From positions 3,326 to 67,325 of the forward strand of contig JAGVPB010000004.1 in the NCBI GenBank assembly GCA_020052415.1: DNA of 64,000 bases, in the 5' to 3' direction. Source of the DNA: Bacteroidales bacterium. Its GTDB lineage: Bacteria > Bacteroidota > Bacteroidia > Bacteroidales > JAADJA01. The notes under the pieces were generated by a model. It did not search any database and was not told the DNA's origin. It was given only the letters and a program-made list of their open reading frames with translations. The translations under genes and the position numbers were made by a program. Within the stretch, counting starts at the first letter, position 1; each line of letters opens with the position of its first letter. This document shows positions 6,101 through 52,309 of this stretch, one piece after another.

Positions 6101-7456
6101 TTATAGCTCCATAACTTTAAGGGTGCGGGGAGTTTTCCACATCCCTCTTGTAAAATCAGGGAATTGCATCGGCCATCCACCACTGGCAATTGATTTTTCG
6201 CTTAATCCGGTAACAGCGCTCAGCACGGCTGCATCATAAACATCCATATCGGGTTCTATACCATTCAATAAAGCATTGATCAACCGGTAATCCTCAAGGT
6301 AATCCATCCCGCCATGCCCGGAACCGGCAGTTTCATTCTCCATTTGCTGCCATAATGGATGATAAAATTCATCTTTATAGCTTTCCAAATCTTCCCACGT
6401 GTGAGCCGGGCTTCTGCCTTCGATATGAATTTTCGGATCAGGATATTTCTGAACGATCCCGTTTGTTCCCTGGATCAGGATGTCCCGGCTGTACGGACGT
6501 GGATTACTGGTATCATGTGTTACCATTATTGTTTCTCCGTTCATGGTTCTGATCATGGTTGAAACCACATCACTGAGTACAAATTCTTCTTTTGCCTGCG
6601 GGCTTTCCAAACCAAAAAGATCGAGTGCATATTTGTGCTGTCCCCGTGATTTTGTACCAAATGAAACGAGATAATCAAAATAATTTCCCCTGTTGATACC
6701 GAGGCATTGGGCAACCGGTCCGAGACCATGAGTCGGATATAAATCACCATCATGCTTCATTGAATGTGTCCTGCGCCAGACACCCTCGCCATTCATATCA
6801 TGTTTGACAGCTCTTAAATCATGAAGATAACCGCACCGGGCATGAAGGATTTCGCCAAGGATTCCTCTTTTAACCATGTTCAGGATGATCATTTCTTCGC
6901 GGTCGTAATTGCAGTTCTCCATCATAATGCAATGTTTGCCGGTATGCTCGGATGCTTCGATTAACTGCCAGCATTCGGCGATGGTCAACGCTGCCGGAAC
7001 TTCGGTAGCCGCATGTTTACCTGTTTTCATTGCTTCAAGGCATACCGGTACATGCCATTCCCAGGGTGTTGCAGTAAAAACCAGGTCAATATCATCCCTC
7101 TGGCACATCCGATTGAAATCCAATTCACCTTTCGAATAGCCTTCGGGTTTTGGAAATCCTGCTTCCACTGCCATATTCTGAGCACGAACCACTCTGTCCT
7201 CAATAATATCGCAAACAGCAACAATTTCACATCCTTTAATTTTCAGGAAATTGCTTACATGTGAAGTTCCCATTCCCCCGACACCTACCATTCCAATTCT
7301 CACTTTATCAAGTTTATTTGGTTTGAAAGGGTAATTGTTCAGTGCCGGTAGGACAGCTTCGGCTTCGCTGGAAAATGCCAGGTTTCCTAAGGCAATCCCC
7401 AGACCGGCCTGGGCACTTTTTTTTAAAAAACGACGTCGGTCAAAACTACTTTTCAT
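6101..7456 (-). CDS. Gfo/Idh/MocA-family NAD-dependent oxidoreductase with twin-arginine signal (GH109-like)
   Basis: 451 aa; N-terminal DRRRFLKKSAQAGLGIALG Tat-type signal; Rossmann motif VRIGMVGVGGMGTSH. Length and architecture resemble the glycoside hydrolase 109 group. Confidence 0.7.
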   Translation of the reverse strand: MKSSFDRRRFLKKSAQAGLGIALGNLAFSSEAEAVLPALNNYPFKPNKLDKVRIGMVGVGGMGTSHVSNFLKIKGCEIVAVCDIIEDRVVRAQNMAVEAGFPKPEGYSKGELDFNRMCQRDDIDLVFTATPWEWHVPVCLEAMKTGKHAATEVPAALTIAECWQLIEASEHTGKHCIMMENCNYDREEMIILNMVKRGILGEILHARCGYLHDLRAVKHDMNGEGVWRRTHSMKHDGDLYPTHGLGPVAQCLGINRGNYFDYLVSFGTKSRGQHKYALDLFGLESPQAKEEFVLSDVVSTMIRTMNGETIMVTHDTSNPRPYSRDILIQGTNGIVQKYPDPKIHIEGRSPAHTWEDLESYKDEFYHPLWQQMENETAGSGHGGMDYLEDYRLINALLNGIEPDMDVYDAAVLSAVTGLSEKSIASGGWPMQFPDFTRGMWKTPRTLKVMEL

Positions 7457-8256: not shown

Positions 8257-10581
8257 TCATAGTTTGAAACTAACAGGAATAATCATTTTTGTATTCACAG
8301 CGCTACCATGCTGCATTCCTGGCTTCCATTTTCCGCTGCTGAGTTTCATTACACGCAAAGCCTCCTTATCAAGCAAGGAATGGACACTCCTTTTAATATT
8401 TATTTCGGATATTGTTCCATCTTTGTTAACAACAAATTCAATATAAACTGTTCCCATTATTCCCTTCTCCGCAGCTTCTTTCGGATATTTCAGGTTGGCT
8501 TTAAGGAAAGACTGAAACGCCAGATCCCCGCCAATAAATTCAGGCTGGCTTTCTGTGATTGTGAAGACAGGTTCATTTTCATCCGAAAATTCAAAGCTTA
8601 CCTCTTGCAGACAATCAACTGCAGAATATCGGGTTTGAGAAGAATTACCCATTTTCATTGACATTGCAGAATAATAATTTTCTCCTACTGCATTGTTGCT
8701 CACTCCAGGAGGCAACGGCAATGGCTGCTTTACTTCAATCAGTTGTCCGTTTTTATTTCTGATTTCTGAATCTATCGCAACAAAAGAAGTGTAGTTTGTA
8801 AGCAAGTCATATTTGAGGCCAAGAGCAGTAATTTCATTCACCAGTTCCTCAGACTGTTCACAGCTTGCATAATCATCGAACAATCTGATTTTTTCCCTTG
8901 CCCAAAGTAACCGGATAGCTGAATTTTCCTTTGATGGTGAATATTCTGCAAGGTCAAGCCTTTGATTAATTCCCCATCCTCCTGTTGTACCGCTCAGGTC
9001 AATAAAACCCGACGGATTTCCCCTGTATTTACCAAAAACCAGAACAGGCCTTTCCGAAAAAACATCAGGAGCTTCAAGGGGTTCTACATCATAGACTTCG
9101 ATACCTTTGAACTGGATTTTTATATTCGTCAGCACGGGATTGCTGACATACTTCCTGAATTTTTCCGCCATCCTGCTCGCTTCACTCTGACTTGCAGCAA
9201 TAAAGGGAAGCCCATTGCCTGCATGAGCCATTCCTTCGATCAGGTAACGATCAACCGAGCTTCCAATCCCAAAAGGAAAGAAATTAGCATTGCCCAAATT
9301 TTTACGGATAAGGTCGAAGGCTTCTTTTTCAACAGTCACATAACCATCAGTGGCAATTATAAATGTTCTCGAAAAGTTTTCAGTACCGCTCAGAGCCAAT
9401 GCCCTCCTGAGTGCCGGTAATAATTCTGTACCTCCTCCCCCATTTTGTTTTTCAATGAAATCAATTGCCTTTTTTATATTCTGCTGATTGGCATCGAGAG
9501 AATAATCCGAAAGTATTTCATTACCACCTGCAAATAAAATTACATTAAACTTATCAGTATTCCTGAGGTTGCTGATGAGATCTTTCAGTAATGATTTTGA
9601 AACCTCAAGCGGAAATCCCGACATGGAACCGGAAACATCAACGATGAAAACATATTCCCGCAGCGGAATATTTTCAGGTTTTACCTGTTTAGGTGGTTGT
9701 ATCATTGCCAGAAAGAAATTTTCTTCCCTGCCTTCATATAGCAAAAGGCCCGATGCAATCTGGTCGCCTTTCAATTTATATTTCAAAATGAAATCCCTGT
9801 TCCCACCAAACTTTTCATCTTCTTTAAGGCCGACCTTGACCTTTTCTTTACCGGTAAAATTAATGTCTGCATGGTGTGTGGTACAGGTCACATCACTCAC
9901 AGGGATTCCGGCATTCAGGCTGACCGAAAGATCAAAAGTGTAATATGGAAGTTGTCCTTCCGGTGTATAGGGATTTGACACCCATAATTCGTTTGCACTT
10001 GCAAGCTTTTCCGGAGTATTTGAGTAGCGTGGCCCGACCACTGTCGGATAGACAAATTCATAGACACCATCCTCAGGAATTAAAAGTTCCGTATATCTCA
10101 ATTCAACTTTTATCTCATCTCCGGGCATGATGTTGGCAACATTCATTTGAAAAACATTCGGCCGCTGCTGTTCAAGCAGGCTTGCACTATAACCGTTTTG
10201 TTTTGCTTCTTCGTAATCCTGCCTGGCCTTATCCTTTTTTTCAATTTTTGCTTCAATGATTCTTTCACCGATGGTCATTTTCATTCCGTAAACTGCCGCC
10301 CGTGTAGAGGCCGGGAAAATATAAATAGCCTCTATGGCTTGATTCCCGCTGTTTTTATAAACCTGGGTCACCAGTATATCCGCGATCACACCGGCAATAT
10401 TCACATTTGCATTCGTTGATTTCAAAGGTAACTGATCGGTTCCCGGCTTATCGGATTGAATAAAGAAATAGGGAGAGAGGGTTTTGTCGGAGCCTTGTTC
10501 CGTTTGACTGATTCCGTTATAGGAACCGGCAATTAATAATGCCAGACCGATTAAAAGGATTTTTGCTGATTTTACTTTCAT
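8257..10581 (-). CDS. Secreted VIT domain + von Willebrand A domain protein with a TonB C-terminal domain
   Basis: 774 aa with a signal peptide (MKVKSAKILLIGLALLIAGS). VIT-like region at about aa 35-165. vWA with intact MIDAS DVSGSMSG (aa 315-322) and TDG. The last ~100 aa, PEFIGGDLAFQSFLKANLKYPKEAAEKGIMGTVYIEFVVNKDGTISE...IPVSFKL, are TonB_C-like. Confidence 0.8.
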   Translation of the reverse strand: MKVKSAKILLIGLALLIAGSYNGISQTEQGSDKTLSPYFFIQSDKPGTDQLPLKSTNANVNIAGVIADILVTQVYKNSGNQAIEAIYIFPASTRAAVYGMKMTIGERIIEAKIEKKDKARQDYEEAKQNGYSASLLEQQRPNVFQMNVANIMPGDEIKVELRYTELLIPEDGVYEFVYPTVVGPRYSNTPEKLASANELWVSNPYTPEGQLPYYTFDLSVSLNAGIPVSDVTCTTHHADINFTGKEKVKVGLKEDEKFGGNRDFILKYKLKGDQIASGLLLYEGREENFFLAMIQPPKQVKPENIPLREYVFIVDVSGSMSGFPLEVSKSLLKDLISNLRNTDKFNVILFAGGNEILSDYSLDANQQNIKKAIDFIEKQNGGGGTELLPALRRALALSGTENFSRTFIIATDGYVTVEKEAFDLIRKNLGNANFFPFGIGSSVDRYLIEGMAHAGNGLPFIAASQSEASRMAEKFRKYVSNPVLTNIKIQFKGIEVYDVEPLEAPDVFSERPVLVFGKYRGNPSGFIDLSGTTGGWGINQRLDLAEYSPSKENSAIRLLWAREKIRLFDDYASCEQSEELVNEITALGLKYDLLTNYTSFVAIDSEIRNKNGQLIEVKQPLPLPPGVSNNAVGENYYSAMSMKMGNSSQTRYSAVDCLQEVSFEFSDENEPVFTITESQPEFIGGDLAFQSFLKANLKYPKEAAEKGIMGTVYIEFVVNKDGTISEINIKRSVHSLLDKEALRVMKLSSGKWKPGMQHGSAVNTKMIIPVSFKL

Positions 10582-10601
10582 GATTTCATAGTTTTTATTA
10601 T

Positions 10602-11285
10602 TTAATGCATTAAGTTAAATTTAACCGGAAGCACCATCTGGACATTTACCGTTTTCGTCCTTTGTTTACCGGGATTCCATTTGGGCATGTTTGTTACGAC
10701 ACGAAGTGCTTCTTCATCACATCCACCACCAATGCCTCTTTGTACAAATACATCCCTGATGCTTCCGTCTTCCCAAACAATAAAATTCATATAAACCGTT
10801 CCGGATATGCCTGTTTCAACTGCTAACCGCGGATATTTCAAATTATCCAAAAGGTATTTTTGTAAAGCTGCGTATCCACCAGGGAAAGATGGTTGTTCCT
10901 CAACCACTTTAAATACCACAGGTTCTTCGGTGAATTCTTCGGGTTCATCAATATTGATCAGGTTCAGAACATTTTGTGTTTTGTCGGGGTCTTCAAAAAT
11001 AATTTCGATGATGTCCTCAGGTTCTGAATTATCAATAACACTAAAATTAACCGGCTGAACTTTAGGAATCGGAATCAGGGGTTTATTATCTTCCTGAACC
11101 GTAATTTTTACAATCTCCTCTATTTCATAGTTTTCGTTTGAAAAGAGTTTTTCGATTGAATATGCTTTTTCCGACCGCCATTCAAAAGCAGCCAGAACAA
11201 CAGATAAACTCACAACGAGTCCGATCTGGAAAAACAGCGTACGCTTATGCTCAAGGTTCGCTTTTTCTGATTTTTTGATTTTCAT
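10602..11285 (-). CDS. TonB-family energy transducer
   Basis: 227 aa; N-terminal TM anchor (LFFQIGLVVSLSVVLAAFEW); acidic/Pro linker; C-terminal PSFPGGYAALQKYLLDNLKYPRLAVETGISGTVYMNFIVWEDGSIRD...LPVKFNL. Confidence 0.8.
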   Translation of the reverse strand: MKIKKSEKANLEHKRTLFFQIGLVVSLSVVLAAFEWRSEKAYSIEKLFSNENYEIEEIVKITVQEDNKPLIPIPKVQPVNFSVIDNSEPEDIIEIIFEDPDKTQNVLNLINIDEPEEFTEEPVVFKVVEEQPSFPGGYAALQKYLLDNLKYPRLAVETGISGTVYMNFIVWEDGSIRDVFVQRGIGGGCDEEALRVVTNMPKWNPGKQRTKTVNVQMVLPVKFNLMH

Positions 11286-11437
11286 AACATTTTGTTTTAA
11301 AGGTTGAACTTTTTAAAATCTCATAATTTGGATGCCGGACTTATAATTATTCCATAAATTAGCAAAGAATTTTTTGGCATTTGTAATAAACCCCTGTGGT
11401 ATAATGTTTGCAACTTTGAGGGATAAAGCTGGATCAA

Positions 11438-12040
11438 ATGATTCTTAAATCTATTTTTAAATCAAAAAAAGAAAATGACCTTCGCAATTATGCGGACGGA
11501 GAATTGATCAGGGCTTTTAAAACAAATCATGGCAATGCCTTCCTCGAAGAAATATTCAACAGGTACAGCCATCTTGTATTCGGCGTTTGCATGAAATACC
11601 TGAAAAATGAAGATGAAAGCAAGGATGCTGTAATGCAAATTTTCGAAAACCTCATAGAGATACTAAGAAAACAGGAAGTTGAGAATTTCAGAAGCTGGAT
11701 ATACACCGTTTCGAAAAATCATTGCCTGATCATATTGCGAAAACAAAAATCCACAGAAAATGTAAGGTCGGGATATTTCGAAAAAGTTCACACCGAAATT
11801 ATGGAATCCACGGATGTTTATCATCAGCATAACAAAACGGATTTGAATGAAAAACTACCGCATCTTCAGCCTGCCATTGAAAAACTCAATGAAGAACAGC
11901 GCAAGTGTATAGAATTACTATATTTACACGATAAATCGTATCAGGAAGTATCGTCACTTACTGGCTATAGTTTAAAACAGGTGAAAAGCTTTATTCAAAA
12001 CGGAAAGAGAAATCTCAGAATTTATCTTGAAAACAAATGA
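11438..12040 (+). CDS. ECF-type RNA polymerase sigma-70 family factor
   Basis: 200 aa; region 2-like FRSWIYTVSKNHCL; region 4 HTH SYQEVSSLTGYSLKQVKSFIQNGKRNL. The stop overlaps the next gene (ATGA). Confidence 0.85.
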   Translation: MILKSIFKSKKENDLRNYADGELIRAFKTNHGNAFLEEIFNRYSHLVFGVCMKYLKNEDESKDAVMQIFENLIEILRKQEVENFRSWIYTVSKNHCLIILRKQKSTENVRSGYFEKVHTEIMESTDVYHQHNKTDLNEKLPHLQPAIEKLNEEQRKCIELLYLHDKSYQEVSSLTGYSLKQVKSFIQNGKRNLRIYLENK

Positions 12041-13320
12041 GTTCGGAAACAAAATATAAAACGTTGTTCAGTCCTTCGGGCTGTCTGACGCTGGAGGCTA
12101 TGAACCGCTATCAGGCATCGGAACTTACTGAGTCGGAAAAGAGAGAAATTGATGACCATCTTAATGGTTGTGAATTGTGTTGTGATGCTCTTGAAGGATT
12201 ACGTCTGATTACGGACCGCGACAAACTGAATTCAATTGTTTCAGAGATCAATAAAAACCTGAGGAAAAATCTCATCACTGAAACCGGGACTGTCAATCCC
12301 ATTTACCAGGAATCCGGCATGAAGTATTTGTATTTTGCAGTTGCTGCCTCGGTTTTACTACTGATAGCTGTTTTTTCCTATCTGAATTTTTATTCACCGA
12401 TTAAGGAAACACAATTGTCAGTTTTATCTCCCGCTGATTATGAAATTCAGATTCCGGATTTGCCTGTCCCGAAATTGCCAAAACAACAATCTCAGGAATC
12501 AGCAATTAAGCTTTCCGAACAAATACCGGCTGATGAAATTAAACAGACTTCGGTCAATCAGCAAAAGCCAGGGAAAGTAAAATCAGGATCAGACGAAAAA
12601 TCTGAAAATTTCAAACCTGCAATAGCTGAACTCAAAAGCAGCGACACTTTACTGACAGAAACATACGCAAACGGAGAAAACATTACTGTTCTCACCGAAA
12701 ATAAGGAATCAGAACCAACAAATGTTGCTATAGCCAGCACTCAGCCGGTCGAATATTATTTAGGCGGAGTTATCATCGAGGCTGAAAATTCAGGCATTGT
12801 ATTATCTGATATGAGTATTTCAAACAAATCGGCTGAAACAATGACAAATAATGGTTTGACCAGCGAATCCGGGAAGAGAAAAAATATAAATTCGGAAAGG
12901 CCGGCAAACAAAAGGAAAAACGAAGAAAAAACTAACAACAATAAAGTGTTAGACGAAATTAACGAAAAGGCTCAACCCTCAAATGTAAATTCTGAGAATA
13001 TCAGCCATTTTTTCCGAACCATAGATACAATGCCGGTTTTTCCAGGAGGAGATGTAGCCAGGACTGAGTTTCTTAAAAAACATCTTCAATATCCTCAGGC
13101 AGCAAGAATTCAGGGATTTGAGGGAACAATTTACATCTCATTTATTGTTGAAGAAACCGGAAAAATCACATCAGTCGAAATCCAGAAAGGCCTGGAGGAA
13201 GAATGTAATAGAGCCGCAGTCAGAGCTGTACAGTCCATGCCCGACTGGCAACCAGGTTATTTTGAAGGAAAAGCGATAAGAGTAAGGTTTACAATGCCTA
13301 TTACTTTTCAGTTAAAGTGA
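12037..13320 (+). CDS. zf-HC2 anti-sigma factor fused to a TM segment, a long low-complexity linker and a TonB C-terminal domain
   Basis: 427 aa. H41-x3-C45-x2-C48 (HLNGCELCC). TM at aa 96-119 (YLYFAVAASVLLLIAVFSYLNFY). A ~210-aa S/E/K/N/P-rich linker. C-terminal PVFPGGDVARTEFLKKHLQYPQAARIQGFEGTIYISFIVEETGKITS...MPITFQLK. Translationally coupled to the sigma gene. Confidence 0.75.
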   Translation: MSSETKYKTLFSPSGCLTLEAMNRYQASELTESEKREIDDHLNGCELCCDALEGLRLITDRDKLNSIVSEINKNLRKNLITETGTVNPIYQESGMKYLYFAVAASVLLLIAVFSYLNFYSPIKETQLSVLSPADYEIQIPDLPVPKLPKQQSQESAIKLSEQIPADEIKQTSVNQQKPGKVKSGSDEKSENFKPAIAELKSSDTLLTETYANGENITVLTENKESEPTNVAIASTQPVEYYLGGVIIEAENSGIVLSDMSISNKSAETMTNNGLTSESGKRKNINSERPANKRKNEEKTNNNKVLDEINEKAQPSNVNSENISHFFRTIDTMPVFPGGDVARTEFLKKHLQYPQAARIQGFEGTIYISFIVEETGKITSVEIQKGLEEECNRAAVRAVQSMPDWQPGYFEGKAIRVRFTMPITFQLK

Positions 13321-18979: not shown

Positions 18980-19558
18980 ATGATGGATCAGGGCGACAAT
19001 TTTTATATTGATAAAGTTTTGAAAAATGACCTTAATGCCTATTCGGTTCTGGTTGACAGGCATAAGGACATGGTTTATTCCATCGCACTGAAGATTCTTA
19101 AAAACAGGGAGGATGCAGAGGAACTGGCGCAGGACGTATTTATGAAAGCATACCAGTCGCTCAAATCCTTCAAAAGAGAATCGAAGTTTTCGACCTGGCT
19201 TTATAGAATTGCATATAATTCAGCTATTTCAAAGACAAGGAAAAAACAATTTATAACAACAGACCTCGATTATAATATCGTGGAGAATTATTCAATAGAT
19301 GAAATTAAAGAGGATGTTGAGCGTCTCAGTGATGACGAACAGAAAAAAATAGTAAATACGATTCTCGAAAAATTAAACCCCGAAGAAAGTATTCTAATTA
19401 CGTTATTTTATTTTAGTGAAAAAACGACTGAAGACATAAGCATCATTACGGGTTTATCACAGTCGAATGTAAAAGTCAGATTGCACCGTTTGAGAAAGCG
19501 CTTGCTGACTGAAGTGCAATCGCAAATTCAAAAAAGTAATAAGGAGATATTCAGATGA
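18980..19558 (+). CDS. ECF-type RNA polymerase sigma-70 family factor
   Basis: 192 aa; region 2 DAEELAQDVFMKAYQSLKSFKRESKFSTWLYRIAYN; region 4 TEDISIITGLSQSNVKVRLHRLRKRL; ATGA overlap with the next ORF. Confidence 0.85.
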   Translation: MMDQGDNFYIDKVLKNDLNAYSVLVDRHKDMVYSIALKILKNREDAEELAQDVFMKAYQSLKSFKRESKFSTWLYRIAYNSAISKTRKKQFITTDLDYNIVENYSIDEIKEDVERLSDDEQKKIVNTILEKLNPEESILITLFYFSEKTTEDISIITGLSQSNVKVRLHRLRKRLLTEVQSQIQKSNKEIFR

Positions 19559-26959: not shown

Positions 26960-27290
26960 ATAAAATTTTTACTTCAAAGTAACCGAAGTTATTTGTTTAT
27001 TCAATCAATTTATAAATTTATCTTAATCAAAGGCAGGTATTTCTCTCACATCATGAAAAAATTTCCCTTGTGTAATCCCGCAATAACTCAAAAGGCAGGT
27101 AAATTATTTCATTGAGGGAAATATGAAAATAAATTCTGATGCATAAAGATTTATAAATAAAGTGTCTAAAATGGTGGAAAATATTAATGATCCAAATATT
27201 TTTTTAATTTTGGTTTAATGTAATTAAGAAAACGATCTAAAATTTTTGATTTTTTCCGGAATCTATTAATATTTTGGATTGCACGATAAA

Positions 27291-30200
27291 ATGATATCTG
27301 ACAAAAGTTTCATAAAACAAGTTATACAATCCTGTTCATCAACAGCATTGGTTATTTTATTTTCATTTATCACTATCTATGCTGGCGGACAGGTTATCAT
27401 AAATGAGGTCTCTTCAAGGAATGCCACTTTTTTTACAGATCATTACGGAGACCATCCCGATTGGGTTGAACTCCTTAATGTAAGCAGCGAAGATGTTAAT
27501 CTGGCTAACTGGTCAATTTCCGATGATATTTCCCAACCCGAAAAATGGAAATTTCCTGAATTGACCCTCCCTCCTGATTCCCATTTAATTGTATTGGCAA
27601 GCAACAGAGACATGAAAGAGATTGTGGATCATTGGGAGACTATCATTAAAGCTGATGATACCTGGAAATACTGGATTCCGAATGGCGAACCGGATACCGC
27701 CTGGAAAAATCCCGGATTCGATGATTCAGGCTGGTATGAAGGGCCTGGTGGATTTGGCAGGGGTGATGGCGATGATAATACGGTTCTGCCTGATTCCGTA
27801 GCAACAGTTTATATCAGGAAAACATTTACCATTATTGATAAATCAGTCATTTCGCATGTTCTCCTGCATATAGATTATGATGATGCTTTTGTTGCCTATT
27901 TAAATGGCGTTGAGATTGCCCGCACAAATATCGGATGGCCGGGTAAAATACAGAAATGGGATGATTATTCTTATGGAGTCCACCCCGCATTGATGATCCA
28001 GGGTCTGCCACCGGAACAATTTCCGATTGATCTTGAATATTTTAATTCCATCACCATACAAGGTGAAAATGTACTTGCAATCCAGGGTTTGAACGCCTGG
28101 AACAATCATGGTAATTTTTCTCTTATACCATTTTTCTCCGTTGGTATTAATAACAATTCCTTTACTTACCAGGCGACACCCGACTGGTTTGGTGACAAGC
28201 CGATTCATCTCCATACCAATTTCAACCTTGCCGGTGAGGGAGAAAGTCTTGCTCTGTATAATGACAATCAAAATATTGTTGATTTTATTGATTTCCCCTA
28301 TCTTCATGCAGATCACAGCTTTGGAAGAGAAATGGATGGAAGCGCGGTCTGGAAATATTTTAAACAGCCCACTCCAGGTTCAGATAATGAAATGTCGGTT
28401 TTTTTTACAGGATATGCTAAAGAACCACAGTTTGATCACGAATCCGGATTTTATAGCGGTACTGTTCAGATCGGCTTCTCAAACTATCAATCCGGGGATA
28501 CGATAAGATACACGATTGATGGAAGCTGGGTGAGCGATTCATCTGCTGTTTATACCGGCGATCCAATAACATCCGATACCACCATTGTTGTTCGCGCTCA
28601 GGTTTACCAAAGTGGATTTCTCCCTGGTAAAACGCTGACAAATACATATATCATTGGTTACACTTCAACTTTACCTGTAATGTCGGTAAGTTTGAATCCT
28701 CACGATCTTTGGGACTGGGAAGAGGGTATTTATGTACTGGGTCCGAATGCAAGCACTACATATCCCTATTTTGGTGCAAATTACTGGATGGATTGGGAAA
28801 AACCTTCTCATATCGAATATTTTGACAGCAATCTTTTCCCAGCTTTTGAACTCGATGCGGACTTGATGATCCACGGCGGATTTTCGCGCGTATTTCCCAT
28901 GAAGAGCCTGCGTGTTCTCACAGATCGTAAATACGATGAATCAGAGATAAACTATCAGCTTTTCAAGGATAAGGACATCCACACATTTCAAAAATTCGTC
29001 CTGCGAAATTCAGGTCAGGATTTTAACATCACACATTTCAGGGATGCATTGATGCAGAAGGTGGTTCAAAAAAATACCGGAATTGATATACAGGACTATC
29101 AGCCGGTAGTCGTTTTCCTTAACGGACAATACTGGGGAATCCACAATATGACGGAAAAAATTGACCGGTACTATGTGAACGAAAATTTCGGGATACATGA
29201 AGACAGCACCAATGTCCTGAGAGATAACATCATCATCGTGGAAGGCGATTATTATCACTATGCCATTATGATAGATTTTGTGAAAAATGTTCCTGTTGTG
29301 GATTCCGCGGCTTATGATTCGATATCGAAAATGGTGAATATCACCAATTATACCGATTATTTTATAGCCCAGATGTATTACGTGAATCCTGAATTTCCGC
29401 GGCATAACACCAAATACTGGCGATCGGATGCCGATACATCGAGGTGGCGGTACATTATGACCGACCTGGATTTTGGATTGGGATTGTATTCTTCGGCTTC
29501 CAGCAACGAGTTATACAGGGTGCTTCACTCTAATATACAATGGTCTGACAATCACTGGATATTAAGGCGGATACTGGAATTTCCCGGGTATAAACGATAC
29601 TTCATTAACCGGAGTGCGGATATGTTTAATACCATGCTGATTACACAAAATCTGATAAATACCATCCACGCATTTAAAGACAGGCTTGCCCCTGAAATGC
29701 AGGTTCACATGCCCCGCTGGGGGAGCAGTTTTGCTGCATGGGAGTCTAATGTGAATATTATGATCAACTTTGCTCAAAACAGATTGGGTAACATCTGGCA
29801 ACATTATACAGATGAATTCGGACTGGAAAAAACGGTTACCATTGGCCTCGGAGTGGATTCCATTGCGCATGGTACAATTAAGATAAACACCATTATTCCT
29901 GATTCTTTACCGTGGCATGGAATATATTTCGATGGAAATGCAGTTGATATTTCAGCCATCCCAGATTCAGGTTATATCTTTTCGCACTGGCAAACTAATC
30001 TGATCATTTCTGGTTTGGATACCCTAAAACAATCCCTGAATATTAACCCGGATACCAATGATTTCTTCAAAGCTTTCTTTGTTTTGGATACTATAATAAT
30101 TGATACACCTTTCATAGTTTTCAGTGAGATCAACTACAATTCTTCCGATACTCTTGATGCGGGCGACTGGGTTGAAATCATGAATGCCGACACTGCCGGC

Positions 30201-30872
30201 GCTGACATTTCGGGATGGATTTTCAGGGACAGCGATGACACTCATGAATTTACATTGCCACAACCGCTTTATCTCGATACTGGTCAATTCTTTGTCTTTT
30301 GCAGGGATACGACGATGTTTAAATCGGTTTATCCCGAAATCACGGAATTTGCGGGACCCTTTGATTTCGGACTGGCAAGCGAGGGCGACGAAGTCCGGTT
30401 GTTCGACACCGCCGGGGTGCTTGTCGTTAGTGTAAATTATACCAATCAACCTCCCTGGCCATTGGATGCTGATGGTACTGGAAAAACAATTGAATTGTAC
30501 AATCCGTATGGCGACATTAACGATGGGAATAACTGGTTTTCGGGCTGCATCGGTGGTTCGCCGGGAGGGCTGTTTGTTGAATGCGATACGATTAATATTC
30601 AGGAAATCCTGGATTTAACAGGCGAGGTCAGAATATTCCCGAATCCCGCAAAAAATGTTATTTCGGCTTCAATTGATCTGGAATATCATGATGAAATTTA
30701 TATGACCCTGTATGATGCTATGGGCAACTTCTTACTCAAAGAGGGTTGTATTGTTTGGCCCAAAACAACCCGAACAATTCAGGTTGATGTTTCAGGTTTT
30801 AAAACAGGTGTTTATTTTATCAAATTAATAGGACAGCATATCAACTTTACCGGGAAGATTTTTATCCGGTAG
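27291..30872 (+). CDS. CotH kinase-family protein flanked by two lamin-tail domains, with T9SS type-A CTD
   Basis: About 1193 aa from ATG 27291 (the ORF track starts at TTG 27279). LTD-like VIINEVSSRN...DWVELLNVS near the N-terminus and VFSEINYNSSDTLDAGDWVEIMNA near the C-terminus. Central CotH-like region (FVLRNSGQDF, YWGIHNMTEKIDRYYVNENF). C-terminal VRIFPNPAKNV...GVYFIKLIGQHINFTGKIFIR. Confidence 0.8.
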   Translation: MISDKSFIKQVIQSCSSTALVILFSFITIYAGGQVIINEVSSRNATFFTDHYGDHPDWVELLNVSSEDVNLANWSISDDISQPEKWKFPELTLPPDSHLIVLASNRDMKEIVDHWETIIKADDTWKYWIPNGEPDTAWKNPGFDDSGWYEGPGGFGRGDGDDNTVLPDSVATVYIRKTFTIIDKSVISHVLLHIDYDDAFVAYLNGVEIARTNIGWPGKIQKWDDYSYGVHPALMIQGLPPEQFPIDLEYFNSITIQGENVLAIQGLNAWNNHGNFSLIPFFSVGINNNSFTYQATPDWFGDKPIHLHTNFNLAGEGESLALYNDNQNIVDFIDFPYLHADHSFGREMDGSAVWKYFKQPTPGSDNEMSVFFTGYAKEPQFDHESGFYSGTVQIGFSNYQSGDTIRYTIDGSWVSDSSAVYTGDPITSDTTIVVRAQVYQSGFLPGKTLTNTYIIGYTSTLPVMSVSLNPHDLWDWEEGIYVLGPNASTTYPYFGANYWMDWEKPSHIEYFDSNLFPAFELDADLMIHGGFSRVFPMKSLRVLTDRKYDESEINYQLFKDKDIHTFQKFVLRNSGQDFNITHFRDALMQKVVQKNTGIDIQDYQPVVVFLNGQYWGIHNMTEKIDRYYVNENFGIHEDSTNVLRDNIIIVEGDYYHYAIMIDFVKNVPVVDSAAYDSISKMVNITNYTDYFIAQMYYVNPEFPRHNTKYWRSDADTSRWRYIMTDLDFGLGLYSSASSNELYRVLHSNIQWSDNHWILRRILEFPGYKRYFINRSADMFNTMLITQNLINTIHAFKDRLAPEMQVHMPRWGSSFAAWESNVNIMINFAQNRLGNIWQHYTDEFGLEKTVTIGLGVDSIAHGTIKINTIIPDSLPWHGIYFDGNAVDISAIPDSGYIFSHWQTNLIISGLDTLKQSLNINPDTNDFFKAFFVLDTIIIDTPFIVFSEINYNSSDTLDAGDWVEIMNADTAGADISGWIFRDSDDTHEFTLPQPLYLDTGQFFVFCRDTTMFKSVYPEITEFAGPFDFGLASEGDEVRLFDTAGVLVVSVNYTNQPPWPLDADGTGKTIELYNPYGDINDGNNWFSGCIGGSPGGLFVECDTINIQEILDLTGEVRIFPNPAKNVISASIDLEYHDEIYMTLYDAMGNFLLKEGCIVWPKTTRTIQVDVSGFKTGVYFIKLIGQHINFTGKIFIR

Positions 30873-31532: not shown

Positions 31533-33320
31533 ATGAAAAAAGCTTTACTCATCATCCTGTTAATCTTACCCTTCCTGATTTTCGGTCAGGAAGAGGAATT
31601 TAAATCCATTCACCAGGAGGAACAGGATTTTTACAGGGATTTGAATTTAAAATCGAGAACTGAATATGATTCGCTGAATGGTTTTAAGAATACCAATTGG
31701 ATTAAAAACTCTGATATTTCTCTTGAAAAACGCGTCTTCGGCTACCATCCCTACTGGGCGGGCAGCAATTACCTTAATTACCAATGGAATCTGCTCACCG
31801 ACCTGTGTTTTTTCTCCTACGAGGTTGATCCTTATTCCGGTGAGCCGCTTTACGTTTACGACTGGTACACGTCGGAAGCGGTGGACTCGGCTTTGGCAAA
31901 CGGGGTGAATGTTCATCTCTGTGTAACTCTGTTTTCGGGTCATGCCTCTTTCTTTGGTTCGGCAACATCACAGCAAACGCTTATCAATAATGTGATTGAA
32001 CTTATCGAAGACCGTGGCGCTCATGGTGTAAACGTTGATTTCGAGGCTGTTCCTTCTTCTCAGAGCAATGCACTGACCGGGTTTCTGATTGATCTTTCGG
32101 GACAAATGCACACGGCAATTTCCGGCTCGCAGGTAAGCATAGCAGCTCCCGCCGTCAACTGGAGCAACACATTTAACATTCCGGTTCAAAACCAATACCT
32201 CGATTTTTTTGTCGTAATGGGCTATGATTACTACTGGAACGGAAGCACACAAGCAGGACCGGTTTCGCCGCTTTATTCCATGGCAGGAAACTACGACTAT
32301 AATTTTACAAAAACTGTTTCTTACTATCAGTCACAGGGAGTACCGGCTGACAAATTAATTATGGGTGTACCTTATTATGCCAGGCAGTGGCCGACACAGG
32401 GGCAGTTTGCTCCGTCAAACACCACAGGATCAGGGACAGCTTACACATACAGGTACATTAAAGATAATTCCTCCGGCAATTATTCGGTTGCCAACCAGCA
32501 TCTGGAACCTAACAGCCGTTCGGCTTATTATTCATTCAATTCCGGGGGATGGAAACAATGTTTTCTGGATGAAATCTACAGCATGGGAAAAAAGTATGAT
32601 TTGGTCAACCGCAGGGACCTGGCGGGTATTGGAATCTGGGCACTTGGCTATGACAACGGATATACAGAAATGTGGGATTTAATTGCAACGAAGTTTTCCG
32701 ATGAACTACAATTACCGGATACCGACACCATCTATGATTCAGGCGGCCCGGCCTTTAATTATTATAATGATGAATCGTATTTATATACACTTGCCGCACC
32801 TGAAATAAAGACAATTCAATTGACTTTTGAATTTCTTGATCTTGAGGCAGGTTATGATTCACTATGGATTTATGACGGAGCCGATACAAACAGTTCTCTG
32901 GCCGGGGTCTATTCAGGGAATGAAACTCCTGAAACTCTTAACTCCTCATCGAATTTCATCACACTGAAATTTAGTTCAGATGGGGCAATTACAGGTGAGG
33001 GTTGGGAAGCAGTTTACCAGGTTTACCCTTCTTCAAATGACAATAATAATCCGAATTTAAGTCAATCCGAATTTATCTCTATCTATCCAAACCCGGTGAC
33101 GGACATGGTTTATCTCAGGACTGTTTCGAACTATTACGGATATCTCGAAATATCAATTTTGAGTAGTTCAGCTTTTTCTTTACCTGATAAACATTTTTAC
33201 AGATTTTTCTCAGGCACGGAAGAAATTTCTTTGAATCTGGATGATCTGCCAGGTGGATTGTATTTTATTCGGATAATCGGAGGGCAAAATCAAACTGTTA
33301 AAAAACTGATAATCCGGTAA
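31533..33320 (+). CDS. Glycoside hydrolase family 18-like protein + CUB-like domain + T9SS type-A CTD
   Basis: 595 aa. GH18 active-site region AHGVNVDFEAV (D-x-E retained). GIGIWALGYD. CUB-like YDSGGPAFNYYNDESY...GYDSLWIYDGADTNSSLAGVYSG...ITLKFSSDGAITGEGWEAVY. C-terminal ISIYPNPVTD...GGLYFIRIIGGQNQTVKKLIIR. Confidence 0.8.
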   Translation: MKKALLIILLILPFLIFGQEEEFKSIHQEEQDFYRDLNLKSRTEYDSLNGFKNTNWIKNSDISLEKRVFGYHPYWAGSNYLNYQWNLLTDLCFFSYEVDPYSGEPLYVYDWYTSEAVDSALANGVNVHLCVTLFSGHASFFGSATSQQTLINNVIELIEDRGAHGVNVDFEAVPSSQSNALTGFLIDLSGQMHTAISGSQVSIAAPAVNWSNTFNIPVQNQYLDFFVVMGYDYYWNGSTQAGPVSPLYSMAGNYDYNFTKTVSYYQSQGVPADKLIMGVPYYARQWPTQGQFAPSNTTGSGTAYTYRYIKDNSSGNYSVANQHLEPNSRSAYYSFNSGGWKQCFLDEIYSMGKKYDLVNRRDLAGIGIWALGYDNGYTEMWDLIATKFSDELQLPDTDTIYDSGGPAFNYYNDESYLYTLAAPEIKTIQLTFEFLDLEAGYDSLWIYDGADTNSSLAGVYSGNETPETLNSSSNFITLKFSSDGAITGEGWEAVYQVYPSSNDNNNPNLSQSEFISIYPNPVTDMVYLRTVSNYYGYLEISILSSSAFSLPDKHFYRFFSGTEEISLNLDDLPGGLYFIRIIGGQNQTVKKLIIR

Positions 33321-49185: not shown

Positions 49186-49944
49186 TTGAAACCTGGTAAC
49201 AAGATATATTTTATTTCCGATAGTCATTTCGGGGTTCCAACCCATGAGAAAAGTCTCGAAAGGGAACGACTTTTTATTTCCTGGTTGGATGAAGTAAAAA
49301 AGGATGCGGAGGAAATTTATATCATGGGCGACCTGTTCGAATTCTGGTTCGAATATAAAACCGTCATCCAGAAGGGCTACGTCAGGTTATTCGGAAAGCT
49401 GGCTGAAATAACCGATTCAGGAATCCCGGTTTATTTTTTTCGTGGGAACCATGACGTTTGGGCATTCGATTATCTTTCCAAAGAACTCAATTTTAAAATT
49501 TACCCCGACACACTTATCAGGGAAATCAACGGAAAAAAATTCTTCCTGGGACATGGTGATGGATTGGGCAAAGGTGACAACGGTTACAAATTCATTAAAA
49601 AAGTATTCCGAAACAGGGTAAATCAATGGTTGTTCCGGTGGCTGCATCCCGATATAGGCACCGCTTTGGGATTATTCTGGTCGAACCGCAGCCGGATCGC
49701 CAATGAAAACACCGGACTTGAAAAAGTGAACCAGGAAGGAATAGACCGTTTAAAATCATACTGTCTTAAAATTCTTACAAAAAACCCTGATATTGATTAT
49801 TTCATTTTCGGGCACATTCATAAACCCGTAGCTGAACAACTGAATGAAAAATCAACATACTTCAACATCGGCGACTGGATAAATTATTTTTCTTATCTCG
49901 TTTTCGACGGAAATAAAATTGAACATAAATATTTTGACAAATAA
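49186..49944 (+). CDS. lpxH: UDP-2,3-diacylglucosamine diphosphatase
   Basis: 252 aa; TTG start; metallophosphoesterase motifs FISDSHFG, GDLFEFWFEY, GNHD, GHGD, GHIH. Confidence 0.85.
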   Translation: MKPGNKIYFISDSHFGVPTHEKSLERERLFISWLDEVKKDAEEIYIMGDLFEFWFEYKTVIQKGYVRLFGKLAEITDSGIPVYFFRGNHDVWAFDYLSKELNFKIYPDTLIREINGKKFFLGHGDGLGKGDNGYKFIKKVFRNRVNQWLFRWLHPDIGTALGLFWSNRSRIANENTGLEKVNQEGIDRLKSYCLKILTKNPDIDYFIFGHIHKPVAEQLNEKSTYFNIGDWINYFSYLVFDGNKIEHKYFDK

Positions 49945-49954
49945 AATCTTCTTT

Positions 49955-52309
49955 ATGAAAGCCTGTCTTTTAATTATGATTTTCATCCTTTCGGGAATTA
50001 CAGGTTCGATGGCACAGAAAGCAGCTCAAATTGAACCCGCCGGTAAATTTTGGATCAGCGATACGCTCGATGCTCTTACATACACTATTTATATCACTGA
50101 ATTTGATTTCACAAATCATGAAATTACTGCTCATGCGGATATTGAAATAACAACAAAAGTGAATGGCGTTACAGAAGTGACATTGGAATTAATGGAGCTC
50201 ACTGTTGATGATGTATCGGTGGATGGAACTGCTGTTACAAATTTTCAGCACACCGGGGGTATCATATCAATTCCTCTGGCTAACCCGATAAATACATCCG
50301 ACACCATTCTTGTAAGTGTTGTTTATCATGGCGAACCCTTTCATGAGGAATGGGGTGGATTTCACTGGTCGGGGAATTACTGTTTCAATCTCGGGGTAGG
50401 CTTTGTTTCCATACCTCACAATCTTGGCAAGACCTGGTTTCCCTGCATAGATGATTTCCACGACCGTGCATATTATACCATTTTTGCCACTGTTGATGAA
50501 GGCAAGGATGCAGTATGCGGCGGAATCCTCGAAGAAATCATTAACAATGGGAACGGAACCCTGACCTATAAATGGACGATGGATCAGTCGGTTCCTACTT
50601 ATCTCGCTTCGGTTGCAGTTGGTGATTATGCAAGGTGGACGGGAATATACAACGGGATAAATGAAGATATTCCGATTGAAATCTGGGTTATGCCTCAGGA
50701 TTCGAATAAGGTTGATGCATCTTTCATTCATCTGAATGATATTCTGGCAATTTTCGAACAGAGCTTTGGTCCTTATCGCTGGGACAGGATCGGTTATGTC
50801 GGGACTGCAATTGGAGCTATGGAACATGCCACCAGTGTTGCCTATCCGCATTTTGCGATAAACGGCAACCTTCAGTACGAATCGCTTTATGCGCATGAAC
50901 TCTCACACATGTGGTTTGGGGATAATGTGACATGTGCAAGCGCTGAGGACATGTGGCTTAACGAGGGATGGGCTGTCTTTTGTGATGCCCTTTTTCAGGA
51001 AGTACTTTACGGTGAAGAACAATACAAGGAATTTATACGTGCAAAACACAAACAGATCATCCAATACTGTCATACATCAAGCGGTGACGGGAGTTATTTC
51101 CCTCTGAACCAGATTCCTCAGGAATACACTTACGCAATGACCGCCTACGACAGGGGTGCAACAATTGCCTACACCTTGCGCGGCTACCTTGGCGACGAAG
51201 TGTTTTTCGATGCGATGGCCGGTTACAATGAATTTTTCCAGCATAATTTTGCTTCCTCCGAAGACATGCGCGATTTTATTACCAATCATACGGGTATAGA
51301 TATGACCGGCTGGTTCGATAACTGGGTTTTTCATTCGGGTACTCCACAATTTTCGGTTGACTCTTTTAATGTTTTTCCAACAGTAAATGGGGCAGATGTA
51401 ACGGTTTATATGCGTCAGAAAAGACACGGGCCTTATTTTATCGGCAATTCAAATAAAATGGAGCTGACATTTATGGATGAAAACTGGAATCAATATACAG
51501 AAACGATGACTTTTGATGGTTCTGCAGGAAGCTCGGTTTTTAATGTTCCCTTTGAACCGCAAGCCGTCTATGTTGATCTCGAAGAAAAAATGTGCGATGC
51601 AACTACCGATTATGCTGAAACTATAACTCAGACCGGATTATACAACTATGGCAATTCATTTTTTAAACTCGATGTTCAGGAGTTGACCGATTCAGTTTTT
51701 ATAAGGATCGAGCATCATTGGGCGCCGCCGGATACTTTAAAAAATCCGGTTCAGGGATTGAAAATCTCACCATACAGGTACTGGAAATTCGATGTCATTA
51801 TACAGGAAGATTTTAATGCAACCGGAGTTTTTATGTATAACAAAAGCGCTTTTCTCGATGATAGCCTGATTCTAAGTCAAAATGATTCAATAGTCATTCT
51901 TTACCGTCCCGGACCTGCTTTCGACTGGCAATTGGTTGATTTTACACAAGTCGGTATTTGGTCTATCGGAAATCTATATGTTGAAAATCTCCAAAAAGGT
52001 GAATATACAATGGCGGTTTGCGATGATACTTTTGTTGGAATAAAATCCGGGCCGGCAAAAAAAAATAGAGGTTTTATAATTTATCCCAATCCTTCAAACG
52101 GTAATTTCAATTTCGGCACCAATCAGCCCGGACTTATCCAGTTTTTTGATGTCAACGGCAACCTCCTGGATTCGATGAATGTTTCTGAAAATCAGCAAAA
52201 CAACTCCTGGATTGCAGGAGATTTGCCGGAAGGAACTTATTTTGCCAGGTTCAGATCAATTACTAACGAAATCATTGGTGAAGAAAAACTGGTCATTGTC
52301 AAAGATTAA
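49955..52309 (+). CDS. M1-family zinc aminopeptidase with T9SS type-A CTD
   Basis: About 784 aa from ATG 49955. HELSHMWFG followed 18 aa later by WLNEGWA (HEXXH-18-E). GAMEH exopeptidase motif. C-terminal FIIYPNPSNGNF...GTYFARFRS...EKLVIVKD. Confidence 0.88.
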   Translation: MKACLLIMIFILSGITGSMAQKAAQIEPAGKFWISDTLDALTYTIYITEFDFTNHEITAHADIEITTKVNGVTEVTLELMELTVDDVSVDGTAVTNFQHTGGIISIPLANPINTSDTILVSVVYHGEPFHEEWGGFHWSGNYCFNLGVGFVSIPHNLGKTWFPCIDDFHDRAYYTIFATVDEGKDAVCGGILEEIINNGNGTLTYKWTMDQSVPTYLASVAVGDYARWTGIYNGINEDIPIEIWVMPQDSNKVDASFIHLNDILAIFEQSFGPYRWDRIGYVGTAIGAMEHATSVAYPHFAINGNLQYESLYAHELSHMWFGDNVTCASAEDMWLNEGWAVFCDALFQEVLYGEEQYKEFIRAKHKQIIQYCHTSSGDGSYFPLNQIPQEYTYAMTAYDRGATIAYTLRGYLGDEVFFDAMAGYNEFFQHNFASSEDMRDFITNHTGIDMTGWFDNWVFHSGTPQFSVDSFNVFPTVNGADVTVYMRQKRHGPYFIGNSNKMELTFMDENWNQYTETMTFDGSAGSSVFNVPFEPQAVYVDLEEKMCDATTDYAETITQTGLYNYGNSFFKLDVQELTDSVFIRIEHHWAPPDTLKNPVQGLKISPYRYWKFDVIIQEDFNATGVFMYNKSAFLDDSLILSQNDSIVILYRPGPAFDWQLVDFTQVGIWSIGNLYVENLQKGEYTMAVCDDTFVGIKSGPAKKNRGFIIYPNPSNGNFNFGTNQPGLIQFFDVNGNLLDSMNVSENQQNNSWIAGDLPEGTYFARFRSITNEIIGEEKLVIVKD

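Follow-up and report, generated by a model that had tools for sequence, protein, structure and literature searches.

What might an extracytoplasmic function (ECF) sigma factor be doing beside three proteins that all end in the C-terminal domain of TonB (TonB_C)? This question is raised by four adjacent genes in a 64,000-nucleotide stretch of DNA (hereafter the window) from a Bacteroidales bacterium of the JAADJA01 lineage (assembly GCA_020052415.1, contig JAGVPB010000004.1, positions 3,326 to 67,325, forward strand). A preliminary description had placed the four open reading frames (ORFs) at 8257-10581(-), 10602-11285(-), 11438-12040(+) and 12037-13320(+), and these coordinates were matched exactly by the ORF list. 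Since the whole genome of B. thetaiotaomicron encodes 11 TonB_C proteins (PMC10350073), three such proteins within 5 kb are not expected by chance. Judged by its sequence and gene order, the cluster is a real, conserved and uncharacterised module of uncultured Bacteroidales. We consider it best explained, with a probability of roughly 0.45, as an envelope-signalling module that acts as a homeostat of TonB demand. Its genes and their domains are as follows.

12037-13320, plus strand: zinc-binding (ZAS) anti-sigma factor fused to TonB_C, 427 aa (Pfam, alignment, AlphaFold2, Foldseek)
12037-12285, plus strand: cytoplasmic anti-sigma domain (C16, H41-x3-C45-x2-C48)
12316-12390, plus strand: transmembrane (TM) segment of the anti-sigma
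12391-13023, plus strand: disordered periplasmic linker of the anti-sigma
12730-12786, plus strand: clade-specific beta-hairpin motif inside that linker
13024-13317, plus strand: TonB_C of the anti-sigma
11438-12040, plus strand: ECF sigma factor, 200 aa, with sigma2 and sigma4 (Pfam, NCBIfam)
10602-11285, minus strand: TonB paralogue, 227 aa, with a TM anchor (11175-11237), an acidic and proline-containing linker and TonB_C (10611-10844)
8257-10581, minus strand: VIT-vWA::TonB_C protein, 774 aa, with a signal peptide without lipobox cysteine
10093-10425, minus strand: VIT domain (residues 53-163, E 4e-36)
9190-9651, minus strand: vWA domain (residues 311-464; VWA_3, E 3e-15) with an intact metal-ion-dependent adhesion site (MIDAS)
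8575-8724, minus strand: disordered tether before TonB_C (residues 620-669, AlphaFold2)
8260-8496, minus strand: TonB_C of the VIT-vWA protein (residues 696-774)

The three non-sigma proteins do end in TonB_C, as had been claimed. Pfam matched the domain in the 774-aa protein (E 7.5e-19), in the 227-aa protein (residues 148-225, E 9e-16) and in the 427-aa protein (residues 349-426, E 2.9e-17); all three scored above the Pfam and TIGR01352 cut-offs, and the YP motif and the C-terminal strand are kept by all three classes, whose sequences share 37-49% identity whether compared inside one class or across classes. The zf-HC2 match of the 427-aa protein (residues 19-48) reached 21.1 bits, just below the cut-off of 22.2. 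The assignment of the preliminary description, a zf-HC2-type anti-sigma fused to TonB_C, is safe despite this sub-threshold score, because C16, H41, C45 and C48 were invariant in an alignment of 19 anti-sigma homologues of 30-83% identity and the motif C-x24-H-x3-C-x2-C was present in 14/14 anti-sigmas extracted from other loci. The ATGA overlap of the sigma and anti-sigma genes was also found (12037-12040), and the anti-sigma gene adjoins a sigma gene in 21/21 loci. By its zinc motif with an upstream cysteine, the 427-aa protein belongs to the ZAS-type anti-sigmas, and its translation is coupled to that of the ECF sigma.

Given this motif, the zinc site itself could be the sensor: a cytoplasmic redox switch as in RsrA, with the periplasmic TonB_C serving localisation or stability only. 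The invariance of the full ZAS motif in all anti-sigmas examined is consistent with such a switch. However, the zinc is only structural in many ZAS anti-sigmas (RslA, ChrR), and redox anti-sigmas of the RsrA type are soluble, whereas this protein is membrane-anchored with a large periplasmic part; moreover, TonB_C is retained by every member of the family over a divergence of 23-36% identity. We give the redox switch a slim chance.

An AlphaFold2 model of the anti-sigma, built from 19 sequences, had a mean predicted local distance difference test (pLDDT) score of 60. A helical N-terminal domain (residues 6-82, pLDDT 80-90) and TonB_C (residues 330-427, pLDDT about 90) were predicted confidently, with a TM helix at residues 94-118 and about 200 disordered residues (123-233 and 254-324, pLDDT 30-40) that are interrupted by a short hairpin (residues 238-249). 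When this model was searched with Foldseek, the best matches were C-terminal domains of TonB, including those bound to FoxA (6i97_D, target TM-score 0.80) and TbpA (9dc4_T); the N-terminal domain gave a weak match to RslA (3hug_L, probability 0.66). According to the model, the anti-sigma has the topology of TonB plus a cytoplasmic zinc-binding anti-sigma domain, that is, the domain, one TM helix, a disordered linker of about 200 residues and TonB_C. Its TM segment reads ..AAAS(V/I)LxLIG.., with the small-residue run AAA(S/T) conserved in 14/14 proteins. Within the linker, the motif IASTQPVEYYLGGVII (residues 232-249) was considered as a universal TonB-box mimic; it is carried by only 5/14 anti-sigmas and was demoted to a clade-specific feature. 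About 22 full-length members of the anti-sigma family were among the best 150 matches in a profile search of a representative library, which is a lower bound on family size. The same search was dominated by proteins in which TonB_C is repeated three to seven times in tandem (P0147 of 692 aa, for instance, has six stretches and P0168 of 1214 aa has seven), and TonB_C is therefore used far beyond classical TonB.

The protein encoded at 11438-12040 possesses Sigma70_r2 (residues 40-105) and Sigma70_r4_2 (residues 146-193) in Pfam, and it matched the ECF model TIGR02937 with E 5e-23 and 81.5 bits (cut-off 42.9). With sigma2 and sigma4 only in about 200 aa, it belongs to the ECF (group IV) sigma factors. 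No named subfamily or equivalog applied, as every NCBIfam model of that kind remained below its cut-off (TIGR02985, 79 vs 126 bits; sigma_PG0214, 62 vs 130 bits). Its homologues form more than 100 clusters of 50-88% identity, and all of those with a named source come from uncultured metagenome-assembled genomes, mostly of Bacteroidales.

The two divergent genes also encode what had been described. The 227-aa protein carries TonB_C after an N-terminal TM segment, as in an ordinary TM-anchored TonB, and its N-terminal signature KKSxKANLExKR..FFQIGLxxSLxxVLxAFEW is conserved among orthologues. This signature is found in only this one of the three TonB_C proteins, the VIT-vWA protein having just a signal peptide; judging by its anchor, the 227-aa protein is the only one in the cluster that qualifies as a TonB. 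Only 20 nt separate the tonB paralogue from the VIT-vWA gene downstream of it, and the two probably form one operon. In the 774-aa protein, Pfam found VIT, vWA and TonB_C; given its signal peptide without a lipobox, the protein is presumably periplasmic. Against sequences of the Protein Data Bank, its body matched PARP4 (E 1e-30), ITIH4 (E 2e-19) and ITIH1. The MIDAS residues D315, S317, S319, T385 and D412 were invariant in 33 homologues with a mean column identity of 63%, and the AlphaFold2 model had a mean pLDDT of 75, with 83-92 for TonB_C; taken together, this domain and that of the anti-sigma cover 83-94. With the sortase-target model TIGR03788 the protein reached 424 of the 552 bits required, and it carries no sortase signal, so it is not that equivalog. 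The VIT-vWA::TonB_C family is large and well conserved, with at least 8000 candidates; its best 120 clusters are 55-87% identical and have the full domain set.

Several features of the VIT-vWA protein and its neighbour were noted besides. A nearly invariant segment, DKTLSPYFFI (residues 32-41, window 10459-10488), precedes VIT and is modelled with a pLDDT of 50-58; as a speculation, it might offer a strand on which a TonB_C domain docks. In two of the related loci described below, L011 and L030, the TonB_C of the VIT-vWA protein is without the class-typical KLTSGKW insertion and resembles the domain of the adjacent TonB (PGKQRGKAVRV..NLPV.F), a pattern that points to gene conversion between these neighbours. 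In L082 (5190-5660), and possibly in L001 (about 6541-7215), the TonB paralogue is cut short ahead of its TonB_C, which may be real or an assembly error, and the VIT-vWA::TonB_C gene of L086 (2798-5125) is split into two ORFs, by real decay or again by an assembly error.

Does the cluster hold together outside this window? Relatives were collected by a pattern and tblastn scan of one genome per species, in which all matches came from uncultured Bacteroidales and Bacteroidota; a look-up of the window's anti-sigma in the contig index gave no match. The proteins of the cluster, together with the genes on either side, were mapped onto these loci, and unassigned ORFs were checked by Pfam. Among 21 loci including the window, sigma and anti-sigma::TonB_C were found together in 21/21, VIT-vWA::TonB_C in 14/21 (divergent) and the TonB paralogue in 12/21, with a truncated copy in L082 besides, percentages that are biased because 4 of the 14 VIT-vWA loci were picked via VIT-vWA. 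The window, L001, L004, L010, L011 and L030 share both partners in the same divergent layout; L003 and L023 have VIT-vWA::TonB_C without TonB, an IS200 transposase and a CapR-domain gene separating the two halves in L023; L005 and L015 have TonB without VIT-vWA; and L002, L007 and L017 have neither. The divergent gene of L006 (5490-7217(-)) and L013 (3-1070(-)), which belong to a more distant clade of Bacteroidota, encodes instead a DUF4139/DUF4140 protein ("mucoidy inhibitor-like") that is secreted; whether it is a disguised VIT-vWA protein was considered and rejected, BLAST finding no similarity.

Chance adjacency, or mere background gene order, would be another account of such a layout. The close relatives L001 and L003 share the outer flanks dnaK-udk-...-rlmN as well, hence they carry little weight for linkage. 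However, L011 and L030 keep all four genes amid quite different flanks (a sigma-54 activator, a LysM-SLT gene). Four long contigs sampled from the VIT-vWA side (L081, L082, L083, L085) all have a sigma gene and a protein of about 400 aa ending in TonB_C adjoining it, again with differing flanks, and two contigs sampled from the sigma side (L086, L087) show the same arrangement. The module thus occurs with differing flanks in L011, L030, L081, L082, L083, L085 and L087, and a common promoter motif links the divergent genes. The preliminary description had asked for this neighbourhood comparison and for the Pfam search of the three C-terminal modules; the order of the genes proved conserved far more widely than that of their surroundings (L011, L030, L081-L087), and all three modules scored as TonB_C, the model of the anti-sigma domain having the TonB C-terminal fold. 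The probability of chance adjacency is negligible, and on the evidence of synteny the linkage of the sigma/anti-sigma pair with its divergent partners is not in doubt.

How would the genes be tied into one circuit? Three elements between and within them bear on this.

11331-11357, minus strand: site 1, predicted ECF-type promoter TTATGGAAT-N14-CATC, ending 46 nt before the tonB ATG and facing the tonB/VIT-vWA operon
11799-11825, plus strand: site 2, second copy of the motif inside the sigma ORF, over the sigma2-sigma4 linker codons I-M-E-S...H, with the anti-sigma gene 212 nt downstream
11397-11414, plus strand: conserved element TGGTATAATGTTTGCAAC, candidate housekeeping-type promoter of the sigma/anti-sigma operon, 24 nt upstream of the sigma ATG

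The motif of sites 1 and 2 was first seen by eye in aligned spacers upstream of sigma genes, as ATTCCATAA on the sigma strand, equivalent to TTATGGAAT-N14-(G)CATC on the strand of the divergent genes. It was searched in a strict form, TATGGAA[AT]-N14-CATC, as a relaxed core, as a 10-base core and in a 13-base form. In the window, the 10-base core was found twice against 0.44 expected, the 13-base motif had exactly two matches, and two-mismatch variants were at chance level. The strict motif had 28 matches in 17 loci, all at the two module positions and none elsewhere in 1.13 Mb, and 35/37 matches of the relaxed core in 331 kb of module loci were at these two positions. Site 1 occurs at the same place in L001, L003-L006, L010, L013, L015, L023, L081, L083 and L085-L087; in L023 it still stands directly before VIT-vWA despite the IS200 insertion, and L002, L007 and L017, which have no divergent partner, also have no site 1. 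No match was found in 69 of the first 80 loci, all but four of which (L007, L011, L014, L030) carry only some other TonB_C protein; L007, L011 and L030 are module loci with a GGAAA variant. L030 has GGAAA in place of GGAAT at both sites and L011 has it at the divergent site; because both sites of L030 changed together, one factor probably reads both. In L011, the stretch that separates the divergent promoter from sigma contains an 84-bp tandem duplication (7181-7348, 95% identical), which adds about 120 nt to the distance of the promoter motif from sigma as compared with L030.

Site 2 is conserved in 17 sigma genes. Its Glu is encoded by GAA in 17/17 (background 0.76) and its His by CAT in 17/17 (background 0.67); the codon after His always starts with C, whether the residue is Q, P, H or L, with Leu encoded by CTN in 11/11 (background 0.60), and T is in every case the last base of the preceding codon. 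These codon counts are not phylogenetically independent.

The cognate promoter of an ECF sigma has an AAC-like -35 and a short -10 element and is normally autoregulatory. Here the conserved TTATGGAAT-N14-CATC is tied to the locus, but the copy on the sigma strand lies inside the sigma gene, not upstream of it. From its distribution, the motif is most likely the promoter that this ECF sigma recognises. The sigma gene itself seems to be without an autoregulatory promoter and to carry an intragenic promoter for the anti-sigma alone, which would give negative feedback without positive autoregulation. Upstream of sigma, TGGTATAATGTTTGCAAC is conserved in the window, L001-L004 and L023 and is weaker in L005, L010 and L015. 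The housekeeping -7 box of Bacteroidetes is TAnnTTTG, which TGGTATAATGTTTGCAAC resembles, and the element may drive basal expression of sigma and anti-sigma. A generic scan for sigma-70 promoters and terminators gave 14 matches where 15 were expected.

Given the predicted sigma-type promoter before the tonB/VIT-vWA operon, the two divergent TonB_C proteins are most likely outputs of the sigma. The preliminary description had regarded them as possible competing or cooperating partners; they could then compete with the sensor domain, but they do not look like obligatory co-sensors, and both are dispensable. We hold with considerable confidence that the cluster is a functional sigma/anti-sigma module whose local regulon consists of the divergent operon and the anti-sigma gene.

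The proposed circuit would operate as follows. Sigma and anti-sigma would be made together from the housekeeping-type promoter, and the ZAS domain would hold sigma at the membrane. The linker would let the TonB_C of the anti-sigma reach the outer membrane, where a TonB-box-like strand would be exposed, most likely on TonB-dependent transporters awaiting TonB, and would be bound by beta-strand pairing. Docking would lead to release of sigma, probably via regulated proteolysis of the anti-sigma. Free sigma would then direct synthesis of the TonB paralogue and of the soluble VIT-vWA protein, whose identical kind of docking domain could compete the sensor off its target, and would also yield extra anti-sigma from the internal promoter. 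The response would be self-limiting, because the outputs share the docking domain of the sensor and because extra anti-sigma is made; both kinds of output would end it, and the module would thereby be a homeostat of TonB demand, responding to TonB boxes left unserved. The specific claim that the signal comes from transporter TonB boxes is put forward tentatively, at well below even odds, and fits the TonB-like topology with its 200-residue disordered linker. The most detailed version seems doubtful: a TonB-shaped sensor that counts exposed, unserved TonB boxes and calls for extra TonB and for a VIT-vWA protein capping TonB boxes, as a second, FecR-independent form of cell-surface signalling in which sensor and outputs compete for one docking strand and an intragenic promoter provides feedback through the anti-sigma only.

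Several points weigh against a TonB-demand homeostat. The TM segment of the anti-sigma is without the N-terminal TonB signature of the neighbouring paralogue, and nothing in it points to coupling with ExbBD. TonB_C is very promiscuous in Bacteroidota (88,616 representatives, many of them multi-domain), and partners other than TonB boxes are possible. At 14 nt, the spacing between GGAAT and CATC is shorter than in many ECF promoters. Site 2 is in one reading frame everywhere (I/V-M-E-S..H), so its conservation could be partly at the protein level, although the synonymous-codon pattern argues for constraint on the DNA. The preliminary description had noted that no gene for a TonB-dependent receptor, ExbB or ExbD is adjacent; in the window none was found closer than about 10 kb to the cluster, and wherever genes were called in the other loci, none was linked to the module. 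Since tonB is often unlinked to exbB/exbD, this absence is not decisive. Finally, tonB and VIT-vWA are each absent from some loci and the DUF4139 protein is under the same promoter in the sister clade, and therefore "more TonB" cannot be a universal output.

The conservation of the VIT-vWA protein bears on a different possibility, a closed circuit in which the TonB_C of the anti-sigma binds a component of its own module, either TonB_C of the TonB or VIT-vWA protein or the DKTLSPYFFI strand, and the MIDAS of the VIT-vWA protein acts as a ligand sensor that relays its occupancy. C-terminal domains of TonB can dimerise. The VIT-vWA protein is far more conserved than the anti-sigma, with its column identity and invariant MIDAS as expected of a ligand-binding part; residues 32-41 combine near-invariance with a low pLDDT, as is often the case with docking strands; and in L011 and L030 its TonB_C became similar to that of the neighbouring TonB. 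Anti-sigmas containing vWA are known in group ECF289 (PMC7826278). On the other hand, sigma/anti-sigma pairs exist without an adjoining VIT-vWA or TonB gene (L002, L005-L007, L015, L017), so the sensor must work without them unless they are encoded elsewhere, and the position of VIT-vWA behind a sigma-type promoter marks it as an output. We consider the closed circuit unlikely.

Could the anti-sigma instead sense envelope integrity or mechanical state, TonB_C merely anchoring it to peptidoglycan or the outer membrane, so that damage or a change in spacing exposes it to proteases? Its long disordered linker and single TM helix make a tether-like anatomy, the conserved AAA(S/T) run would be compatible with intramembrane cleavage, and the outputs differ by clade (TonB/VIT-vWA vs DUF4139), as in general stress regulons. 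Binding of peptidoglycan by the C-terminal domain of E. coli TonB has been proposed. Yet the predicted regulon is tiny, with two sites in the 64-kb window and none beyond the module positions in the 1.13 Mb, mostly from other genomes, and an output that shares the domain of the sensor points to competition for a specific partner and not to general repair. Such a sensor is quite unlikely, and the TonB-demand homeostat is preferred.

The cluster is flanked by housekeeping genes, with dnaK, udk, a Gfo/Idh oxidoreductase and a glyoxalase-fold gene on one side and rlmN, usp and an acyl-CoA dehydrogenase gene on the other. The 3' end of the anti-sigma gene overlaps that of the convergent rlmN by 20 nt (13301-13320), with no terminator-like site between. 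None of the four cluster proteins matched a PADLOC defence model. The only TonB-dependent transporter in the window is encoded at 54970-57381 (+), and exbB and exbD were not found in the window. This transporter has CarboxypepD_reg, Plug and barrel regions and a TonB-box-like LQEVEIHG before the plug, and it lies 42 kb from the cluster with no motif site nearby. A second ECF sigma gene is located 6 kb downstream of the cluster (18980-19558, +); behind the equivalent gene of L086 (10367-10942) comes an ORF of 144 aa without Pfam match, possibly its anti-sigma. Three cargo proteins of type IX secretion (Por_Secre_tail) are encoded on the plus strand, namely a CotH and lamin-tail protein (27279-30872), a GH18 and CUB protein (31533-33320) and an M1 peptidase (49919-52309); a CotH/lamin-tail protein also adjoins the module in L083.

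Bacteroidota have many TonB paralogues and dozens of TonB-dependent transporters, and we know of no account of how the supply of TonB is adjusted to what the transporters need. Pollet et al. (2023) state that TonB proteins carrying additional domains are uncharacterised. The module offers a compact and conserved test case of four genes, two predicted promoters and a mutable 13-base motif, and its ECF pair and motif could serve as an orthogonal switch; all carriers found are uncultured, which limits immediate experiments. If the TonB_C of the anti-sigma binds TonB boxes, transporter state could be read without a FecR/STN pair, and the recruitment of TonB_C onto signalling proteins, BlaR1-like ones included, would be explained.

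Compared with known systems, the cluster resembles FecA/FecR/FecI signalling (ECF239/240 with FecR-like anti-sigmas in Bacteroidetes) in its use of TonB machinery and in having an anti-sigma that crosses the membrane once, would sequester the ECF sigma and is proposed to sense a transporter of the outer membrane through its periplasmic part. It is also like other ECF systems with single-pass anti-sigmas. However, no FecR domain was found in this anti-sigma by Pfam or NCBIfam, and it carries the C-terminal domain of TonB itself; its linked genes include no transporter equipped with an N-terminal signalling domain, the nearest transporter having no STN match; the sigma falls well short of the cut-off of the Bacteroidetes FecI-like model TIGR02985; and in place of a transporter operon, sigma is predicted to switch on a TonB paralogue and a VIT-vWA protein. 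By domain content, the cluster is not a FecR-type system. The anti-sigma is closer to class I ZAS proteins (RsrA, RslA, ChrR), with which it shares HxxxCxxC and the upstream cysteine, a gene directly downstream of and coupled to that of an ECF sigma, and a helical model, but its extracytoplasmic part is TonB_C on a 200-residue disordered tether. A characterised ZAS anti-sigma with a TonB_C part was not found in the literature searched, nor did searches of open-access papers bring up a description of any anti-sigma with TonB_C or of VIT or vWA with TonB; an annotation in ECF Hub or InterPro may exist.

TonB proper (E. coli TonB; TonB4 and TonB6 of B. thetaiotaomicron) shares the canonical TonB_C, YP motif and C-terminal strand with all three cluster proteins, and the TonB paralogue agrees with TonB4 and TonB6 in its length of 227 aa and in domain position (Table 1, PMC10350073). 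The anti-sigma copies the order of TM segment, linker and C-terminal domain but not the N-terminal signature, whereas the VIT-vWA protein has no membrane anchor, and no exbB/exbD is linked. TonB1 and TonB10 of B. thetaiotaomicron, BlaR1-like Peptidase_M56::TonB_C proteins, are likewise signal-transducing membrane proteins fused to TonB_C, but their cytoplasmic output follows a logic of protease and repressor cleavage, as opposed to sigma sequestration here, and P0023 from our search was only a distant match. A VIT-vWA body with intact MIDAS is shared with ITIH heavy chains and PARP4, and the ECF289 anti-sigmas (vWA plus DUF3520) are a vWA precedent in ECF signalling; the main text of the ECF reclassification mentions these anti-sigmas and none with TonB_C (PMC7826278). 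In the present cluster, by contrast with ECF289, the vWA protein is separate, secreted and C-terminally fused to TonB_C, and is apparently a sigma target and not an anti-sigma. Periplasmic force transducers, in which membrane-tethered vWA proteins are coupled to TolQR-like motors, have a different arrangement (PMC12204202). Taken together, the cluster is an uncharacterised variant of ECF signalling and not a new kind of system; what is new here is the predicted promoter motif that ties its genes into a circuit, together with the unusual putative intragenic promoter of the anti-sigma.

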